Shown here piece by piece: positions 4,669-44,600 of a stretch of 44,600 bases of DNA. Each line of letters begins with the position of its first letter. Within the stretch, counting starts at the first letter, position 1. This DNA comes from Chlamydiota bacterium (lineage in GTDB: Bacteria; Auribacterota; UBA3054; B51-G9), in assembly GCA_030596365.1 (NCBI GenBank), contig JAUVKG010000001.1:1-44600 (forward strand). Reading direction: 5' to 3'. Under the pieces are notes generated by a model that was not told the origin of the DNA, did no database searches, and saw nothing but the letters and a program-made list of their open reading frames with translations. Both the position numbers and the translations under genes were made by a program.

Positions 4669-4693
4669 AGTAAGCCGCGCTTCCCAGCGCGAG
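4669..4693 (+). repeat. stop-codon-abutting hairpin element AGTAAGCCGCGCTTCCCAGCGCGAG
   Basis: The hairpin is CGCGCT-TCCC-AGCGCG and begins 1 nt after the TGA at 4665-4667. A near-identical copy lies at 44429-44453. Confidence 0.85.
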
Positions 4694-4790
4694 CAGTGAG
4701 TAGCGAGTAGTGAGTAGTGAGTAGTGAGTAGTGAGTAGTGAGTAGTGAGTAGTGAGTAGTGAGTAGTGAGTGATGGAGTGATGGAGTGAT
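4693..4790. repeat. heptamer array GTGAGTA (about 11 units) followed by octamer GTGATGGA (about 3 units)
   Basis: The arrays are read directly from the sequence. Confidence 0.95.
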
Positions 4791-10625: not shown

Positions 10626-10633
10626 TTTTTATA

Positions 10634-10749
10634 TTGGACATTTAGGACAAATTGGACAAATTGGACAAATTGGTCATATTGGTCATATTGGTCATATGGA
10701 CATAATGGACAAATTGGTCATATGGACATAATGGACATAATGGACAAAT
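10634..10749. repeat. short tandem repeat array of 8-9 nt GGACA/GGTCA units
   Basis: The units ATTGGACAA, ATTGGTCAT and ATGGACATA are interleaved, about 13 in total, between the hemW stop and the yigZ start. Confidence 0.9.
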
Positions 10750-14730: not shown

Positions 14731-15318
14731 ATGGCTATAAAAATTTCTGTAAGAGCAGATACACTAAACTTAACCGATGAAATTAAACCGGCGGCGGAAG
14801 CTGTCAGACGCGGCGATCTCGTGATTTTTCCCACGGAAACAGTTTACGGAATTGCCGCGCGCGCGGACATTCCTGCAGCGGTTCAAAAGATTTATATTGC
14901 AAAAGACAGATCAATAGATAAGCCTTTTGCTTATCATATTGGAAGTTGGGAAATGATGTTTCGTGTCACTGGAGAAATTCCAAAAGAGATTTCAGAATTA
15001 TTAAGAAGACATTTACCGGGAGCTTATACATTTTTGATGAACATTAACGGCGTTAAAACCGGCATCAGATTCCCAAAATGCCCTGTCGCACAGGCCTTTT
15101 TAAATGAATGCGATTGTCCTGTTATGGCAACAAGTGCAAATATCAGTGACGAACCAAGTCCAACAAATATTGATATGACTGCTGACATTCAAAAGTTTGC
15201 GGCTTATATAATAGATTTTGGACCGACACCGGAAAAGGGCGAGTCAACTGTTGTTGATTTAACCACGCATCCGCCAACTGTTATAAGACACGGGAGCGGG
15301 AAGTGGGAAAATCCGTGA
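14731..15318 (+). CDS. tsaC: L-threonylcarbamoyladenylate synthase (YrdC/TsaC type)
   Basis: The YrdC domain motifs FPTETVYGIAA, ATSANISDEPS and STVVDLT are present. The 195-aa length indicates a single-domain protein. Confidence 0.85.
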   Translation: MAIKISVRADTLNLTDEIKPAAEAVRRGDLVIFPTETVYGIAARADIPAAVQKIYIAKDRSIDKPFAYHIGSWEMMFRVTGEIPKEISELLRRHLPGAYTFLMNINGVKTGIRFPKCPVAQAFLNECDCPVMATSANISDEPSPTNIDMTADIQKFAAYIIDFGPTPEKGESTVVDLTTHPPTVIRHGSGKWENP

Positions 15319-15353
15319 TCCGTGATCCGTGATCCGTAATCCGTAATCCGTAA
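15312..15353. repeat. heptamer tandem array TCCGTGA x3 then TCCGTAA x3; the first unit contains the tsaC stop codon
   Basis: Six exact 7-nt units are visible. TGA or TAA occurs at 15316, 15323, 15330, 15337, 15344 and 15351, which covers all three reading frames. Confidence 0.95.
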
Positions 15354-15488
15354 TTAGACGTTGCTCGAAAAGGGTTCAGCCGCAAAGCGGCGTTAAAATC
15401 CCCCTAAACCCCCTTTATGAAAGGGGGAATTGCTTTAGATGACTTTCAGAATTTAAATGTTTTGCACCTTTTCGAGCGCCGTCTAATT
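15352..15488. repeat. 137-nt hairpin element (22-bp imperfect terminal inverted repeat) containing a 42-nt core that recurs inverted at 16051-16092
   Basis: AATTAGACGTTGCTCGAAAAGG (15352-15373) pairs with CCTTTTCGAGCGCCGTCTAATT (15467-15488) at 20 of 22 positions. Inner hairpins are GCCGC-AAA-GCGGC and CCCCCTTT-ATG-AAAGGGGG. Confidence 0.8.
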
Positions 15489-16160: not shown

Positions 16161-16670
16161 TTAATTTACTTTCATCCAACTTTCCAAACTATCTGCTGAC
16201 TGGTAGCCTTGTTTTCTTGAAATAATTCCACCGTTTTTGAAGTGGAATAACGCCGGTACAGCCTGGATTGAATATTTTGCAGAAAGTTCTTTATTTTTTG
16301 AAGCATTAATTTTTAGAATAATTATTTTATTTTTATATTTTCTTGCTAAATTATAAAGTTCCGGCATAAGTTTACGGCATGGAGGGCATGCTGTCAAATA
16401 AAAGTCGGCGATCAAATTTTTATCGCCCGCATTTTTTATTGCAGTTTCAAATTCAGCGGTAGAATTGATATCTATCACATTAGTTACATCTTCCGGTGTT
16501 TTTGGAACACCGGCAAAAAGATTACTTAGCAGCAAACCGAAAACCGCTCCGAGTGCTGCGGCGCCCCACCAGGTACTTGTAAACGGGCATGTTCCCGTAC
16601 TGCATTTCCCGAAATAGCCCAATGCGCCCCCGATTGCCGCGCCGGCAATTATGAACAAGATTTTTGTCAT
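16161..16670 (-). CDS. membrane-anchored thioredoxin-family protein
   Basis: The N-terminus has a Gly-rich TM region. The C-terminal thioredoxin fold carries the CPPC active site (DFYLTACPPCRKL) and the AVPALFHFKNG motif. Confidence 0.8.
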   Translation of the reverse strand: MTKILFIIAGAAIGGALGYFGKCSTGTCPFTSTWWGAAALGAVFGLLLSNLFAGVPKTPEDVTNVIDINSTAEFETAIKNAGDKNLIADFYLTACPPCRKLMPELYNLARKYKNKIIILKINASKNKELSAKYSIQAVPALFHFKNGGIISRKQGYQSADSLESWMKVN

Positions 16671-17218
16671 ATTATCTCCTGATTTTTAAATTTATCCTCA
16701 TTCCATGTTGCAGGATTGTTAATTATATAATTTTCTATTCTAATGTAATCATTTTCATTTCGAATAATATGGTCCCAATATCGTAATTGCCACAAATGTT
16801 TTTCAAAACGTTGCCAATTTATATTTTTTACACCTCGAATATATTCGTTGGTTGTCATTGTTTTAAACCAATCCATAATATCAAATAATGATATTTTAAG
16901 AGGACGCCCACGTAGGGACGTCCCTACGTGGGCGTCCTCTTTATAATTATCCGATGTTTCAATAATACAATGGAAATGATTTGGCATTACAATATATTTG
17001 TGGCATTTCATCTTTATAAATTTATTTTCCAATTCATGATACCATTTTTCGATCATTTTCCCTGCATCATTCAATATCATTTTATCGTCAACGATTTTAC
17101 CAAACAAACATTTGTGGTTTTGTACACACGTGGTGATAAAATATAATCCCTCCAGTGAATAATCGTATCCTTTTAACCGGATTGAACAGCGGTGATGTTT
17201 TTCTGGATTGTATTTCAT
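16667..17218 (-). CDS. REP-associated tyrosine transposase-like protein (RayT / IS200-like Y1 HUH family, COG1943)
   Basis: The HUH motif MPNHFHCII is present. The C-terminal block LWQLRYWDHIIRNENDYIRIENYIINNPATW contains the catalytic-Tyr region typical of the family. The stop codon overlaps the thioredoxin start (ATGA). The ATG at 17218 lies 3 nt downstream of the queA stop at 17222. Confidence 0.8.
   Translation of the reverse strand: MKYNPEKHHRCSIRLKGYDYSLEGLYFITTCVQNHKCLFGKIVDDKMILNDAGKMIEKWYHELENKFIKMKCHKYIVMPNHFHCIIETSDNYKEDAHVGTSLRGRPLKISLFDIMDWFKTMTTNEYIRGVKNINWQRFEKHLWQLRYWDHIIRNENDYIRIENYIINNPATWNEDKFKNQEII
16898..16941. repeat. perfect 44-bp palindrome inside the RayT-like CDS
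   Basis: AAGAGGACGCCCACGTAGGGA-CG-TCCCTACGTGGGCGTCCTCTT. I verified by hand that each arm is the exact reverse complement of the other. It encodes EDAHVGTSLRGRPL. Confidence 0.95.
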
Positions 17219-17221
17219 TAT

Positions 17222-18274
17222 CTATTGAAGCAACATTGCATCGCCATAAGAATAAAATCTGTATTTATTTTTGATAGCTTCGGAATAAATTTTTTGCCAT
17301 TTATTTTCACTTGTGAACGCTGCAATAAGCATTAATAAAGTTGATTTGGGAAGATGAAAATTTGTTATAAGAGCATCAATTGAACGAATTTTATATGGAG
17401 GGTAAATGAAAATATCTGTTGCTTTTGATACCGGCTCAAATATCCCGCTATCACTAATACAAGACTCAAGAACACGAAGTGAAGTTGTTCCCACAGCGAT
17501 AATTCTTCTTCCTGACGTTTTAGCTTTATTAAGTTTGCCGGCGATTTTTTGAGTTAAAACAAATTCTTCGCTGTGCATTAAATGTTTTGTAATATCAGAA
17601 GATTTAACAGGTGCAAAAGTTCCTGGTCCAACATTAAGAGTAACCTGCAGAAACTCGCAACCCTTATTTTTTATTTTCTGAATTAATTCTTCCGTAAAAT
17701 GAAGTCCTGCAGTAGGTGCCGCAACGGCTTTACCTTCGGCTGCATAAACTGTTTGATAACGTTCTATATCTTCTTTTGAAGAAGGACAATGTGGTCTTTT
17801 AATATAAGGTGGCAATGGAATTGTTCCTGATAATTCAAGTAGTTTTTGAAAATCTTTTTCCGGACAATTGAACACAATTACACGTTCGCCATTGTTTTTT
17901 ATTTCGATAATTTCGGCAACAATTTTTCCAACAAGTAGTTTAACACCAACTTTACAGCTGCGTCCCGGTTTAACCATTGCCTGCCATTTCACGGGAGAGA
18001 TTTCTTTAGTAAGTAATATTTCTATTTCCGTGTCTGTATCGATGCGTTTTGCGAAAAGTCTTGCTGGAATAACTTTACAATTATTAACAACGAGGACATC
18101 AGTTTCTTTTAAAAAAGAAATAACATCACTAAAGCGTTTGTGTTGAATGTTTTCTGTTTCGCGGGAATAAACAAGCAATCGACTTTGATCTCTACATTTA
18201 ACAGGTTTCTGAGCTATGAGCTCATCCGGGAGATCATAGTTGTAGAAGTTGAGGTTTGATGTGGGAGATGGCAT
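17222..18274 (-). CDS. queA: S-adenosylmethionine:tRNA ribosyltransferase-isomerase
   Basis: The protein shows full-length QueA similarity: YDLPDELIAQKP, SRLLV, AAPTAGLHFT, GTTSLRVLES and FYSYGDAMLL. Confidence 0.95.
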   Translation of the reverse strand: MPSPTSNLNFYNYDLPDELIAQKPVKCRDQSRLLVYSRETENIQHKRFSDVISFLKETDVLVVNNCKVIPARLFAKRIDTDTEIEILLTKEISPVKWQAMVKPGRSCKVGVKLLVGKIVAEIIEIKNNGERVIVFNCPEKDFQKLLELSGTIPLPPYIKRPHCPSSKEDIERYQTVYAAEGKAVAAPTAGLHFTEELIQKIKNKGCEFLQVTLNVGPGTFAPVKSSDITKHLMHSEEFVLTQKIAGKLNKAKTSGRRIIAVGTTSLRVLESCISDSGIFEPVSKATDIFIYPPYKIRSIDALITNFHLPKSTLLMLIAAFTSENKWQKIYSEAIKNKYRFYSYGDAMLLQ

Positions 18275-18312: not shown

Positions 18313-18447
18313 AAATAAAGGTATTCGGTGTTCAATTCGATTTAAGAACAAGGAACATCGATTTTTGATATTCGATTTATTAACTTCTTAAATCTTAAAT
18401 CGTTAATCGGTGTTCGGTGTTCGCAAAGCATCCGGCGTATGCCGGGC

Positions 18448-18545
18448 AGGTGTCAGGTGTCAGGTGTCAGTATTCAGTATTCAGTATCTAGTATCTAGTA
18501 TCTAGAATTAACTAATAACTATTAACTATTAACTATTAACTATTT
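18448..18545. repeat. compound heptamer array: GGTGTCA x3, GTATTCA x2, GTATCTA x3, CTATTAA-type x5-6
   Basis: The arrays are contiguous and read directly from the sequence. They end 3 nt from the SpoIID-like stop codon (18548-18550). Confidence 0.95.
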
Positions 18546-37288: not shown

Positions 37289-37292
37289 TAGC

Positions 37293-37373
37293 AGGTAGTC
37301 AGGTGTCAGGTGTCAGGTGTCGGGTGTCAGGTGTCAGGTGTCGGGTGTCGGGTGTCAGGTGTCAGGTGTCAGG
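37293..37373. repeat. heptamer array GGTGTCA/GGTGTCG, about 11 units
   Basis: The array is read directly from the sequence. It begins 4 nt from the ATG of the TPR gene at 37288. Confidence 0.95.
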
Positions 37374-37378
37374 AATAT

Positions 37379-37577
37379 AATTCCATCATTCCATCAATCC
37401 ATCATTCCATCAATCCATCAATCCATCATTCCATCATTCCATCATTCCATCATTCCATCATTCCATCATTCCATCATTCCATCATTCCATCAATCCATCA
37501 TTCCATCAATCCATCATTCCATCATTCCATCATTCCATCATTCCATCAATCCATCATTCCATCAATCCATCATTCCA
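37379..37577. repeat. octamer array TCCATCAT/TCCATCAA, about 25 units
   Basis: The array is read directly from the sequence. It ends 20 nt from the 3' end of rnpB. Confidence 0.95.
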
Positions 37578-37596
37578 ATAATTCATAAATCAAATT

Positions 37597-37974
37597 GTAC
37601 TGCCCGCGGCATAAGCCGGATTCTGTCTCCCCGTTTAGGAGAGGGTAACCATTCATCTTTGCGACCTACCCGAAACATATAAACGGCAGGCGCGTCCGGA
37701 AGCGAACTTCCAATGTTTCCTATATGGTCTTGCACCGGATGGGGTTTTCCGTGCCCGCTACGTTACCGTTAGCGGCGGTGAGCTCTTACCTCGCCTTTTC
37801 ACCCTTACTCTGAATCCAGCAAGCTGAATTCAGGGCGGTATATTTTCTGTGGCACTTTCCGTCCACTCGTTAAGAGTGTCCCTTGGTTTCTCAAGGCATC
37901 CTGCCTACAGGTGTCCGGACTTTCCTCTTCGAACAAACAATGTTTGTCCAAAACGGTTACCGCGCGGGCAGTAC
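37597..37974 (-). ncRNA. rnpB: RNase P RNA, bacterial type A
   Basis: The reverse complement contains GAGGAAAGTCCGGAC (P4 5' strand), GTAAGGGTGAAAAGG, GGTAAGAGCTCACC and ACAGAATCCGGCTTAT (P4 3' strand). The terminal P1 pairing is GTACTGCCCGCG with CGCGGGCAGTAC. Confidence 0.9.
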
Positions 37975-38047
37975 AATCATTATTATTTGATTTTTTATAC
38001 AGCTATACTATTATACCGAAAACTGAGAATAAATGCTTGTATTTTAA

Positions 38048-38083
38048 GGTGTCAGGTGTCAGATGTCAGATGTCAGGTGTCAG
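38048..38083. repeat. heptamer array GGTGTCA/GATGTCA x5
   Basis: The sequence reads GGTGTCAGGTGTCAGATGTCAGATGTCAGGTGTCAG and lies upstream of rnpB. Confidence 0.9.
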
Positions 38084-40383: not shown

Positions 40384-40459
40384 TGGTGGAGAATACCGGG
40401 ATTGAACCGGTGACCTCCTGGTTGCAAACCAGGCGCTCTCCCAGCTGAGCTAATTCCCC
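40384..40459 (-). tRNA. tRNA-Ala (anticodon UGC), CCA encoded
   Basis: The reverse complement is GGGGAATTAGCTCAGCTGGGAGAGCGCCTGGTTTGCAACCAGGAGGTCACCGGTTCAATCCCGGTATTCTCCACCA. It has the G3:U70 identity pair and a TGC anticodon in a 7-nt loop. Confidence 0.95.
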
Positions 40460-40519: not shown

Positions 40520-40596
40520 TGGTGGGCCTAGATAGACTTGAACTATCGACCTCGCGCTTATCAAGCGCGCGCTCTAACCAACTGAGCTATAGGCCC
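40520..40596 (-). tRNA. tRNA-Ile (anticodon GAU), CCA encoded
   Basis: The reverse complement is GGGCCTATAGCTCAGTTGGTTAGAGCGCGCGCTTGATAAGCGCGAGGTCGATAGTTCAAGTCTATCTAGGCCCACCA. It folds as a cloverleaf with a GAT anticodon. Confidence 0.95.
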
Positions 40597-40878: not shown

Positions 40879-40913
40879 GTTGGAATATAGATTAGTGGAA
40901 TGATGAAATGGAG

Positions 40914-40933
40914 GGACGCCGTCCCCGGCGTCC
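40914..40933. repeat. REP-like GC-rich hairpin GGACGCCG-TCCC-CGGCGTCC
   Basis: The stem is 8 bp with a 4-nt loop. It shares the GGACGCC arm sequence with the RayT internal palindrome. Confidence 0.8.
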
Positions 40934-40988
40934 TAAATGGAGAAACACCCCGCCCGAAATTCTCCGTGCGCTTCACGAACATTGGGTG

Positions 40989-41015
40989 TTGTCCATTTTG
41001 TCCATTTTGTCCATT
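40989..41015. repeat. 9-nt tandem repeat TTGTCCATT x3 (reverse complement of the GGACA units at 10634-10749)
   Basis: The repeat is read directly from the sequence and lies in the polX leader. Confidence 0.9.
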
Positions 41016-41043
41016 AAAAACAAACCCAAAAACACAAATTGCC

Positions 41044-42798
41044 ATGCCTACTAATAACGAAATAGCAAAAATTTTAAGTGAAACTGCTGATATCCTTGAA
41101 ATCCAAGGCGCAATTGTTTTTCGCGTTCGCGCTTATAGAAACGCCGCACGGGTTATTGAAAATATGACGGATAAACTTTCTGATATTGTCGCACGCAACC
41201 CTGATGAACTGAATTCAATTCGAACTATCGGCAAAACGCTTCACGACAAAATTATTGAGTTTTGCGAAACGGGGAAGGTAGAAGAATTCGACAAATTAAA
41301 AGAATCTCTGCCGCCCGGATTACTTGAAATGCTTAAAATTCAGTCTTTTGGTCCAAAAAGGGTTAAACTTGTTTATAATAAACTTGGAATTGATAGTGTT
41401 AATAAATTAGAAGAAGCTGCTTCGGAAGGAAAAATCCGCGTTTTACCGGGAATGGGTGAAAAAAGTGAGACTAAAATTCTAAAAAGTATCCGCGATTTTC
41501 GTACGCTGCAAACCGATAGAAAACCCTGGGCGGAAGCTGAGGAAATTCTTCAGAATTATCTTGGCTATATTACTAAAATAGACGGAATTCATCATATACA
41601 ACCGGCAGGAAGTTTCCGTCGATGTCGTGAGTCGGTTGGTGATTTGGATATTTTAGTTACCTGCAACGAAAACGCAGGTGGAATAATTCAGCATTTTGCT
41701 GAGTATCCTGAAGTTTTGGAAATACTCGCTCAAGGCGAAACAAAATCAAGTGTAGTTTTAAAAAGCAAAATTCAGGTTGATCTCCGCGTTGTAAAACCGG
41801 AAAGTTTCGGCGCGGCAATGCAGTATTTTACAGGCTCAAAAGAACATAACGTCGCTCTGCGCGCACTCGCGAAAGATAAAAATATGAAGTTGAGTGAATA
41901 TGGCGTTTTTCAAAATGATGAATCTATCGCTGGAAAATCCGAGGAGGAAGTTTATAACGCAATCGGGCTCGACTGGATTCCTCCTGAAATCAGAGAAAAC
42001 CGTGGAGAAATTGAAAAAGCAAAAAATCATACCTTGCCAAACCTTATTTCTTTAGATAAAATTAAAGGCGATTTGCACTGTCATACTACTCATACTGACG
42101 GATCTGCTAGTCTCCCCGAAATGGCTGCCGCGGCAAAAAAACTCGGTTATGAATACATCGCGATTACAGATCATTCGAAAGCAGTAACTATTGCTCACGG
42201 GCTTAGCGCGGAAAGGTTGCTTGATGAGATTATGGAAATCGATAAATTCCGCGGACAAAATCCCGGTATTTATATTTTTAAAGGAATAGAAGTTGATATT
42301 ATGGCTGACGGTTCGCTTGACCTCGATGACGAAATATTATCAAAGCTTGATTTTGCGATTGCCGCTATTCATTCAAGATTTGGTATGAACTCAGATGAAA
42401 TGACAGAGAGAATTGTTCGCGCGATTCAAAATCCTTACGTAAGGTGCGTCGCTCATCCTACAGGAAGATTAATAGGTGAAAGGATTCCTTATGAAATGGA
42501 CATTTCAAAAATAATTTCCGCTGCTAAAGAAAATGATGTTGCTCTTGAAATTAATTCTTCTCCTCACAGACTTGATATGAACGAATCCTTTACTTTCCAG
42601 GCACGCGAAGCCGGAGTTCCTATCTGCATAAACACGGATTCCCACTCGCCTGATGGATTCCTTAACATGCGATATGGTATAAATATCGCACGCCGGGCAT
42701 GGTGTACGGAAGATAATATTGTAAACTCATGGTCATTGGGAAAACTTAAAAGCTGGTTTAAACCACCTAAAGAAGTTGTTCAGTGCGAGCTGTTTTGA
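41044..42798 (+). CDS. polX: DNA polymerase/3'-5' exonuclease PolX (family X polymerase with a PHP domain)
   Basis: From the ATG at 41044 the protein begins MPTNNEIAKILSETADILEIQG (HhH). The Pol beta-like motifs GSFRRCRESVGDLDILV and MQYFTGSKEHN are present. The PHP motifs GDLHCHTTHTDG and AITDHS are present. The track start at 40900 would translate hairpin and repeat DNA. Confidence 0.9.
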   Translation: MPTNNEIAKILSETADILEIQGAIVFRVRAYRNAARVIENMTDKLSDIVARNPDELNSIRTIGKTLHDKIIEFCETGKVEEFDKLKESLPPGLLEMLKIQSFGPKRVKLVYNKLGIDSVNKLEEAASEGKIRVLPGMGEKSETKILKSIRDFRTLQTDRKPWAEAEEILQNYLGYITKIDGIHHIQPAGSFRRCRESVGDLDILVTCNENAGGIIQHFAEYPEVLEILAQGETKSSVVLKSKIQVDLRVVKPESFGAAMQYFTGSKEHNVALRALAKDKNMKLSEYGVFQNDESIAGKSEEEVYNAIGLDWIPPEIRENRGEIEKAKNHTLPNLISLDKIKGDLHCHTTHTDGSASLPEMAAAAKKLGYEYIAITDHSKAVTIAHGLSAERLLDEIMEIDKFRGQNPGIYIFKGIEVDIMADGSLDLDDEILSKLDFAIAAIHSRFGMNSDEMTERIVRAIQNPYVRCVAHPTGRLIGERIPYEMDISKIISAAKENDVALEINSSPHRLDMNESFTFQAREAGVPICINTDSHSPDGFLNMRYGINIARRAWCTEDNIVNSWSLGKLKSWFKPPKEVVQCELF

Positions 42799-44453: not shown

Positions 44454-44501
44454 CCATGGAGCCATGGAGTGATGGAGTGATGGAGTGATGGAGTGATGGA
44501 G
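44452..44501. repeat. octamer array (GCCATGGA x2, GTGATGGA x4)
   Basis: The array is read directly from the sequence. It uses the same octamer as 4768-4790. Confidence 0.95.
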
Positions 44502-44600
44502 AATTGGATGCGATTGTATTAATAAATAAATCTGAATTCATTCGTGTAAATTCGTGTAATTAGTGTCTCAATATTTTTTTTGCAAAATGACATTCGTGTC

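Follow-up and report, generated by a model that had tools for sequence, protein, structure and literature searches.

A perfect REP-type palindrome carried in frame by a subclass 2.4 RAYT gene

The element in this report lies in the first 44,600 nucleotides (nt) of contig JAUVKG010000001.1 (assembly GCA_030596365.1, a Chlamydiota bacterium placed in the Auribacterota by GTDB), and we refer to this whole stretch as the window. It is a perfect 44-nt palindrome at positions 16898 to 16941, set within the coding sequence of a RAYT gene, also called TnpA_REP, i.e., the gene of a Y1 HUH enzyme of the kind associated with repetitive extragenic palindromes (REPs). The gene occupies positions 16667 to 17218 on the minus strand and encodes 183 amino acids (aa). 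In the classification of Y1 HUH enzymes by Quentin, Siguier, Chandler, and Fichant (2018, BMC Genomics 19:475, PMC6006769) it belongs to subclass 2.4, which corresponds to group 4 of Bertels et al. (2017) and for which the motifs NH[IFV]H, WQ, and YIxNNP, a median length of 194 aa, and an occurrence in Cyanobacteria, Bacteroidetes, and various other phyla are given.

All three motifs are present (PMC6006769, Table 1). The HuH motif is N80-H81-F82-H83 (16970 to 16981, minus strand), where the reverse complement of atggaaatgatt reads AAT CAT TTC CAT, and NHFH is invariant in 50 aligned homologues. The WQ motif is W143-Q144 (16787 to 16792, minus strand; the reverse complement of ttgcca is TGG CAA), and the catalytic tyrosine motif is Y164-IINNP (16712 to 16729, minus strand), aligned with YIYINP of the Escherichia coli TnpA_REP structure 4ER8. 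The Pfam Y1_Tnp profile scores 23.6 bits against a cutoff of 23, with the insert splitting the domain, and the NCBIfam REP_Tyr_transpos model, which may derive from other subclasses, scores 58.4 bits against a cutoff of 80. A sequence search of the PDB gave 4ER8 as its only meaningful match. An AlphaFold2 model built with the 50 homologues has a mean predicted local distance difference test score (pLDDT) of 83 and a predicted template modeling score (pTM) of 0.78, and its top Foldseek match is again 4er8_A (E = 4e-7), followed by TnpA structures of IS200/IS605. By its motifs and its 4ER8-like sequence and fold, the protein is a TnpA_REP/RAYT of subclass 2.4, which bears out the RayT-like HUH enzyme proposed in the original prediction, an earlier reading of the DNA letters and their ORFs (open reading frames).

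The gene is tightly packed between its neighbors. queA (17222 to 18274) is separated from it by a gap of 3 nt, and a minus-strand gene whose product joins an N-terminal DUF6132 membrane segment to a thioredoxin domain (16161 to 16670) overlaps the RAYT stop by 4 nt; the RAYT gene appears to be co-transcribed with these housekeeping genes, with queA upstream. No REPs of the flanking, REPtron-like layout were found at this locus, since the gene abuts both neighbors and leaves no room for them; flanking REPs are a common, not a defining, feature of the RAYT family. A tblastn comparison of queA, the thioredoxin gene, and other neighbors in the window with 80 homologous loci revealed no conserved neighborhood, and the operon position is specific to this lineage.

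The palindrome reads AAGAGGACGCCCACGTAGGGAC followed directly by GTCCCTACGTGGGCGTCCTCTT. A repeat finder gives two 22-nt arms with 100% complementarity and a spacer of 0 nt, which is the same object that the original prediction had described as 21-nt arms around a central CG. No further match to the arm was found in the window with up to 3 mismatches allowed, and arm matches arose in 0 of 100 dinucleotide-preserving shuffles; the palindrome is far beyond chance. It is the sole long GC-rich palindrome in the 44.6 kb, and its GC content (0.64) is much higher than that of the remaining gene (0.28), as had been noted before, or of the window (0.37). It begins in frame at the second base of codon K93, ends with the third base of codon L107, encodes (K)EDAHVGTSLRGRPL, and lies, again as predicted, between the HuH and tyrosine motifs. 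Folding, which had been proposed as a check, gave −30.3 kcal/mol (z = −9.6) for single-stranded DNA (ssDNA) and −49.9 kcal/mol (z = −10.0) for RNA. An Rfam scan of the whole window returned an RNase P RNA and two tRNAs only, with no match at the palindrome.

In the AlphaFold2 model, the strand that bears the HuH motif (residues 81 to 88) is followed by a coil (89 to 110) and a helix (111 to 132), and the palindrome-encoded residues 93 to 104 have pLDDT values below 50. Modeling thus shows the palindrome to be translated into what is predicted to be a disordered, surface-exposed linker rich in Gly, Arg, and Pro, with the HUH/Tyr core intact.

Read on either strand, the palindrome has the layout a(GGACGCCC)-ACGTAG-b(GGACGTCC)-CTACGT-c(GGGCGTCC), and the arm type of this in-gene element is GGACGCCCACGTAGGGAC. 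Arm a (16902 to 16909) is the partner of arm c in a long hairpin and, on the other strand, forms the distal stem half of a GTAG-led REP (columns 8 to 15 of alignment A2, described below). A GTAG foot on the plus strand (16912 to 16915) stands 0 nt 5' of arm b (16916 to 16923), a central self-complementary octamer common to two overlapping REPs. The plus-strand CTAC that follows (16924 to 16927) is, on the minus strand, the GTAG foot of the coding-strand REP, an arrangement matching the "double foot" REPs of subclass 2.4, GT[AG]G...C[TC]AC, which possibly come from a central deletion in an inverted REP dimer (PMC6006769). Arm c (16930 to 16937) can pair with b or with a. Pairing with b places GTAG, on each strand, directly before an 8-bp stem with one T.G pair, closed by the 6-nt loop CTACGT; pairing with a is perfect and gives one hairpin of 20 to 22 bp.

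Each strand carries GTAG with a b:c hairpin, and b is self-complementary; the element is therefore two inverted REPs fused, or overlapping, through arm b. A REP has been defined as GT[AG]G lying 0 to 2 nt 5' of a GC-rich hairpin (PMC6006769), and this arrangement is found here on both strands and is conserved or co-varying in 25 species. The short GTAG-led stem, with its one T.G, is not wholly Watson-Crick, and the rule of Quentin et al. asks for at least 7 fully paired basal nt; the long fold has 20 to 22 perfect pairs and includes GTAG among its stem nucleotides, an arrangement known from the double foot class. Arms a, b, and c are near-identical to one another as direct as well as inverted repeats, and slippage between them may account for the tandem arm arrays that we see in homologues.

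A protein search returned 5,821 relatives of 173 to 297 aa, and genes were taken from 80 species, mostly metagenome-assembled genomes of Bacteroidota and Ignavibacteriota/Chlorobiota, with some Chloroflexota and Desulfobacterota. In the alignment of 50 homologues, length differences cluster at the position of the palindrome. The linkers there span 22 to 110 aa, and GTAG hairpins occur at the same loop; many homologues have the linker peptide DAHVGTSLRGRP, which goes with the compact palindrome (type A below), and others have VGADLRVCP...GEHIGSPLH, which goes with a pair of separate REPs (type B). Gly/Arg/Pro-rich linkers in homologues, which the original prediction had mentioned, are thus present at the same place and are palindromic.

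Two layouts share this site. In type A, which includes the window gene, a long loop-less palindrome is built around GGACGCCCACGTAGGGRC joined to GYCCCTACGTGGGCGTCC; tandem repeats made up of arm fragments often adjoin it, DAH... to the left and GRP... to the right. In type B there are two separate inverted REPs: the coding strand reads GTAG and then GGGCAGAC-ctgcgt-GTCTGCCC, and further along GGGCGAAC-acatag-GTTCGCCC followed by CTAC forms a GTAG-led hairpin on the other strand, with partial tandem duplications between the two hairpins. The unit architecture of type B (GTAG, 8 bp, and a loop of CTGCGT or CTACGT) is that of the window element. For type A linkers, the median length of the longest perfect stem is 15 nt, with a maximum of 29 and a loop of 0, and for type B linkers it is 8 nt, with a loop of 6; 240-nt coding controls from the same genes have a median longest stem of 5 to 6 nt. 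Stems of at least 8 bp occur in the linkers of 64 of 74 species, compared to 10 of 74 control segments taken upstream and 8 of 74 taken downstream.

About 86% of species keep the core, and the hairpin has been lost in some homologues (L011, L062, and P0092). In one gene (L036, 4001 to 4810), the N-terminal beta-hairpin has also received a REP-type insertion in frame (VGAGVGAGLRARP...GDHAGSPQ), besides that of the HuH-Tyr linker, and REPs are thus accepted by no fewer than two loops of the protein. Only two disrupted genes were seen among the 80 species: L038 (1138 to 1743) has a frameshift in the REP-bearing linker with the frame restored further on, and L014 (4001 to 4633) has a stop in place of the conserved Trp of WFKTMTTN; they may be pseudogenes or sequencing errors. 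Phase variation through out-of-frame linker indels found no support, with 1 of 80 loci (L038) frameshifted there, in consensus assemblies that would hide minority variants.

The pairing was followed in alignment A2, which covers a 50-nt core in 25 species chosen via the protein and not via the palindrome. The long palindrome is paired in 86.8% of cells, compared to 34 to 47% when the partner column is slid, and nine pairs change on both sides. Double-change cells number 57, against 22.6 ± 5 in shuffled data, and 0 of 500 shuffles reached 57; the sequences share descent, so that these pairing counts are suggestive and not independent. Examples of paired swaps are GTAG/CTAC to GGAG/CTCC (L001) or to GCAG/CTGC (L043 and L049), GGAC/GTCC to GGTC/GACC (L018), and GGGAC with GTCCC to GGGGC with GCCCC. 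Even the central pair in arm b, which is unpairable in the hairpin, switches cleanly between A-T (12 species) and G-C (11), with G.T in 2; such behavior would follow from a center that forms part of the stem in the short REP folds, or from a templated origin of the symmetry. The GTAG-led short hairpin (b:c) is paired in 97% of cells of the 25 species, and its non-Watson-Crick cells are G.T in 16 cases and of the A.C type in at most 3. In the mirror hairpin of that strand, 17 cells are of the A.C type and correspond to G.T when the opposite strand is read, and it follows that the GTAG-led fold is the well-paired one on both strands.

The constraint is visible at synonymous sites. Third-codon-position entropy, from the protein-ascertained genome set, is 0.30 bit in a 36-nt core, compared to 0.86 for the HuH codons and 0.81 for the WFKTMTTNEYIR codons; an estimate that included metagenome loci, found via the core pattern, was discarded as biased. 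The core has no codon periodicity (0.30 at third positions versus 0.33 at first and second positions together), and the constraint or homogenization thus acts on the DNA or RNA and not on the peptide. Outside a common 17-nt arm, the columns are near-random between species (about 1.8 bits) and complementary within each species. Of 40 sequences, 23 extend the palindrome by 3 nt or more and 11 by 5 nt or more; the chance expectation is about 2.7% (binomial p about 5e-26). The extension in the window, AAGAG/CTCTT, is shared with a near-identical metagenome contig (L121), and dispersed copies likewise show copy-specific palindromic extensions. Template switching during replication at quasipalindromes is a known mutational route from imperfect to perfect inverted repeats (PMC7202029). 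The suggestion in the original prediction that the site might be a recombination hotspot receives indirect support from these lineage-specific arm extensions and from the tandem arm duplications in homologues; its option of an autoregulatory structure is neither favored nor disfavored by the analysis.

Relatives of the element are also found outside RAYT genes. A degenerate core, CCACGNAGGGRCGYCCCTNCGTGG, matched 98 metagenome stretches, and 82 sites were examined: 60 fall within RAYT genes, with one and the same codon phase throughout, and 22 lie elsewhere, mostly in AT-rich intergenic DNA. Two related sample sets of about 32% GC account for 12 of the 22. In these two sets many dispersed copies of CGGTCGCCCACGTAGGGGCGCCCCTACGTGGGCGACCG were observed (L083-L087, L097, L098, L103, L124, L129, L154, L156, and L159), each with its own further palindromic flank of 4 to 10 nt, and three of the contigs (L087, L154, and L159) additionally have solo arm fragments nearby. 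At L159 a species-specific arm, GGTCGCC, is common to the in-gene copy and to a copy 290 nt upstream of the RAYT gene, which makes in-gene and dispersed elements one family within a genome. At two sites (L133, position 3220, and L120, position 448) the palindrome occurs in frame (..GAHVGAPLRGRP..) within unrelated ORFs of 1154 and 235 aa. Fifteen type B loci have the same REP immediately upstream of the gene; for type A, with 75 genes and 476 kb of flanks, extra copies were found at 2 loci only. No contig among 2.9 million viral contigs contained the core pattern, and a viral origin was rejected on this ground.

The window itself holds one candidate relative, a possible solitary REP-like hairpin in intergenic DNA on the plus strand at 40910 to 40933, composed of a GGAG foot, GGACGCCG, TCCC, and CGGCGTCC. 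Its stem (40914 to 40933) is the related hairpin with a GGACGCC arm that the original prediction had pointed out, and, outside the palindrome, GGACGCC/GGCGTCC 7-mers occur in the window here only; none of the other GC-rich hairpins of the window has a 7-mer in common with the palindrome. The hairpin is bordered by a tRNA gene (40523 to 40596, minus strand) and the probable start of polX at 41044, and it resembles GTAGGGACGCCACGCTGGCGTCC, a REP listed for subclass 2.4 in the supplement of PMC6006769. The in-gene copy of L001 has GGAG instead of GTAG, as does the foot here. Judged by its arm 7-mer and its REP-like layout, the hairpin is plausibly a solitary relative of the same REP family.

Around this hairpin, the ORF listed at 40900 to 42798 (plus strand, 632 aa) encodes a PolX-type polymerase (HHH_8, polymerase beta palm and thumb, and PHP). 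The PolX domains begin at residue 51, and the real start is therefore probably the ATG at 41044; the first 48 codons of the listed ORF, with the hairpin and an array of three TTGTCCATT units (40989 to 41015), are likely to be 5' untranslated.

Taken together, these observations show the element to be a REP-type palindrome of the family associated with subclass 2.4, carried in frame in a disordered loop, with its position and complementarity conserved across phyla and with dispersed repeats of it in some genomes. The proposal in the original prediction that a REP-type substrate had been inserted into a tolerant loop is supported by the subclass 2.4 motifs and fold of the protein, GTAG and a hairpin on both strands, palindromic linkers in homologues, dispersed copies, and a low-confidence coil. 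None of the outcomes that the original prediction had named as refuting a functional interpretation applies: an artefact can be dismissed, hairpins of this kind occur in other places, and the linkers of homologues form palindromes.

We think it likely that the palindrome is a REP hairpin inside the gene of its own RAYT, where it would serve as a cognate site in a genetically linked copy shaped by selection together with template switching. The element would fold when the locus becomes single-stranded, in lagging-strand replication or transcription, and the folded form would be a binding site, and possibly a cleavage site, of the encoded enzyme. A copy within the gene would keep enzyme and substrate linked and would be retained where dispersed copies are few or absent. 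Selection for recognition, along with hairpin-driven template switching and slippage, would keep the arms complementary, and the same switching and slippage would yield the lineage-specific arm extensions and tandem arm duplications. As a side effect, a very stable mRNA hairpin would form and would probably lower expression.

Several points weigh against this interpretation. Central symmetry and lineage-specific extensions could come from template-switch mutation alone (PMC7202029), and because that process suffices, complementarity is no proof of selection. The fully paired 22-bp hairpin buries the GTAG foot in its stem, and recognition would need the short fold. The loss of the hairpin in L011, L062, and P0092 indicates that it is not essential to the protein. 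Extra copies accompany only 2 of 75 type A loci. The analysis covered 44.6 kb of the source genome, with one copy and one possible relative at 40910 to 40933; flanking REPs are absent from the window, and it holds at most one distant relative of the hairpin. The biochemistry of RAYTs (binding of ssDNA REPs with GTAG as guide and cleavage at a flanking CT or CA) covers groups 2 and 3 only (PMC8266576), and the rationale of co-inheritance is something that we infer.

A more specific proposal, which we offer tentatively and hold to be rather unlikely as it stands, is that the in-gene REP is a selected, self-contained cis element. In the compact clade, the principal or only conserved substrate would then lie inside the gene of the enzyme itself, either as a linked master copy that re-seeds REPs or as a throttle through self-binding or self-cleavage, and hairpin-templated repair would keep it palindromic. 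This proposal arises because the core is conserved beyond the synonymous sites of the catalytic motifs, copies are scarce at the 75 genes, and the extensions are lineage specific.

The main rival explanation is that the palindrome is a neutral passenger, a REP that landed, or was re-inserted, in a loop that tolerates anything, where imprecise loss kills the gene and where hairpin-templated mutation maintains the symmetry; its premise is that REPs build up beside and within the gene for their own mobilizing enzyme. We consider it doubtful, and it does account for a good deal. Quentin et al. suggest that the insert has little impact on activity, the loop is disordered in our model, linkers range from 22 to 110 aa with tandem arm duplications, and some homologues do without the hairpin. 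Templated mutation (PMC7202029) fits both the palindromic extensions, 3 nt or longer in 23 of 40 sequences, and a symmetry that continues through an unpairable center. The in-frame copies in unrelated ORFs (L133 and L120) have counterparts in the intragenic REPs of several species (PMC3733652). Nevertheless, among species at 45 to 65% protein identity the synonymous sites of the 36-nt core are more conserved than those of the catalytic motifs, and the core is kept in about 86% of species; nucleotide conservation and high retention argue against a mere passenger. Dispersed copies are, furthermore, rare around these genes, which makes continual re-seeding unlikely in most lineages, and the bias for G.T over A.C in the GTAG-led hairpin suggests that pairing of that fold matters.

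It is less probable again that the hairpin acts chiefly in the mRNA, where a 20- to 22-bp RNA duplex would stall ribosomes or be cut by RNase III and so keep a potentially genotoxic nuclease at a low level. The strength of the RNA fold (−49.9 kcal/mol, z about −10) is in line with this, as is the coding-strand b:c hairpin, which tolerates G.U-type pairs and almost no A.C, and post-transcriptional damping would make sense for a gene that is packed into an operon and overlaps the gene downstream by 4 nt. The G.T/A.C pattern is, however, mirrored on the other strand, as for a DNA element that is read both ways; type B hairpins, at 8 to 9 bp, fall below the length that RNase III needs, and in one of the two the GTAG lies on the template strand; and the same palindrome occurs in intergenic DNA of some genomes. 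The compact form cannot separate RNA from DNA by strand asymmetry, because the palindrome itself mirrors it, and in a comparison of G.T with A.C in type B, 61 of 72 hairpins are perfect and too few mismatches are left to tell the two apart.

A function at the protein level, with a Gly/Arg/Pro-rich peptide conserved as, e.g., a flexible DNA-binding arm and the palindrome as its by-product, is very improbable. The peptide is basic, belongs to a DNA-binding enzyme, and recurs as DAHVGTSLRGRP in many homologues, but codon periodicity is absent from the core, paired changes replace residues of the peptide (T-S to A-P and V to A) while complementarity is kept, and the model has pLDDT below 50 there. 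The same DNA is also found in non-coding DNA and in other reading frames, and a second clade has, at this position, an unrelated peptide that a different REP encodes. Some library or assembly artefacts, such as chimeric fold-back reads, do create perfect palindromes, but here the palindrome is in frame in an intact ORF with its downstream catalytic motifs, a near-identical copy with AAGAG/CTCTT exists in the independent metagenome contig L121, and over 70 further, independent assemblies of genomes and metagenomes have related in-frame copies, so that an artefact is the least credible explanation of all and, like a peptide-level function, is effectively ruled out.

Other features of the window are recorded here for completeness. 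Intergenic short tandem arrays with periods of 7 to 9 nt lie at 87 to 173, 4691 to 4771, 10631 to 10746, 15310 to 15354, 18447 to 18544, 37292 to 37373, 37380 to 37577, 38047 to 38083, and 44456 to 44508. The unit differs between arrays and includes TAGTTAA (12 copies), GAGTAGT (11.6), ATATTGGAC (13), CAGGTGT (11.6), and ATTCCATC (24.8). These arrays are reminiscent of the heptamer STRR (short tandemly repeated repetitive) repeats of cyanobacteria. The 25-copy ATTCCATC array immediately precedes a bacterial class A RNase P RNA (37595 to 37972, minus strand, 224.7 bits), and the two tRNA genes lie at 40387 to 40459 and 40523 to 40596, both on the minus strand.

No pairing of a domesticated bacterial transposase with a population of its own miniature repeats has been studied as closely as RAYT-REP, whose benefit to the cell is debated; subclass 2.4 is the only group with a repeat inside the gene of the enzyme. 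The window example is unusually compact, with a 183-aa enzyme, one loop-less 44-nt element, no flanking repeats, and a place in a housekeeping operon, and it would be a convenient construct for asking whether the enzyme recognizes the DNA that encodes its own linker and whether the hairpin controls expression of the enzyme. For annotation, Gly/Arg/Pro-rich low-complexity inserts and the sub-threshold hidden Markov model scores that result from them should not be read as pseudogenes or assembly errors.

The arrangement as such was published in 2018, and the window element is a further example. Quentin et al. reported that tnpAREP genes of subclass 2.4 carry in-frame REPs in the region between HuH and Y, and they described a highly variable insert between beta3 and alphaC that carries short DNA repeats and, in a structural model, points away from the active site (PMC6006769). 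Our element agrees with these in protein signature, insert site (the beta3-alphaC loop), reading frame, variable length, short repeats, and double foot, and in a taxonomic range that includes Bacteroidetes and Chlorobi-like phyla. It differs in that their REPs also flank the gene, whereas the window gene has neither a flanking REP nor intergenic space, and most loci of the compact form have no other copy within several kb. Group 4 RAYTs were found to be associated with low-abundance 16-mers only (Bertels et al. 2017), which agrees with the scarcity of dispersed copies here. A compact overlapped doublet forming a loop-less perfect palindrome was not found described in the accessible parts of the text and supplement of Quentin et al., and we found no later literature on in-gene REPs. 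The compact doublet, the conservation past catalytic synonymous sites, and the scarce dispersed partners go somewhat beyond the published description and are compatible with a function of the in-gene copy.

Among better characterized systems, E. coli RayT with its REPs and BIMEs (4ER8; Ton-Hoang 2012, Messing 2012, Corneloup 2021) shares the HUH/Y1 fold, the GTAG foot 5' of a GC-rich ssDNA hairpin, and a single-copy, domesticated-looking gene. It belongs, however, to subclass 2.2 (group 2), with DHLH and YIHYNP in place of the NHFH and YIINNP of the window protein; E. coli REPs are bulged, number in the hundreds, and are extragenic, and the E. coli gene has no internal REP. The REPINs are alike in being two inverted REPs that fold into one long hairpin and in their association with RAYTs, but classical REPINs have a spacer, are extragenic, and occur in tens to hundreds of copies, whereas the window element has a negative spacer (an overlap), is coding, and is present once in 44.6 kb. 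Rickettsia palindromic elements and the intragenic GTAG and CGTC REPs, which have been reported in frame in other genes of several species (Di Nocera et al. 2013, PMC3733652), are likewise short in-frame palindromes tolerated as extra peptide. Those repeats are scattered over assorted host genes; here the host is the presumed transposase of the element itself, and the site is conserved across phyla.

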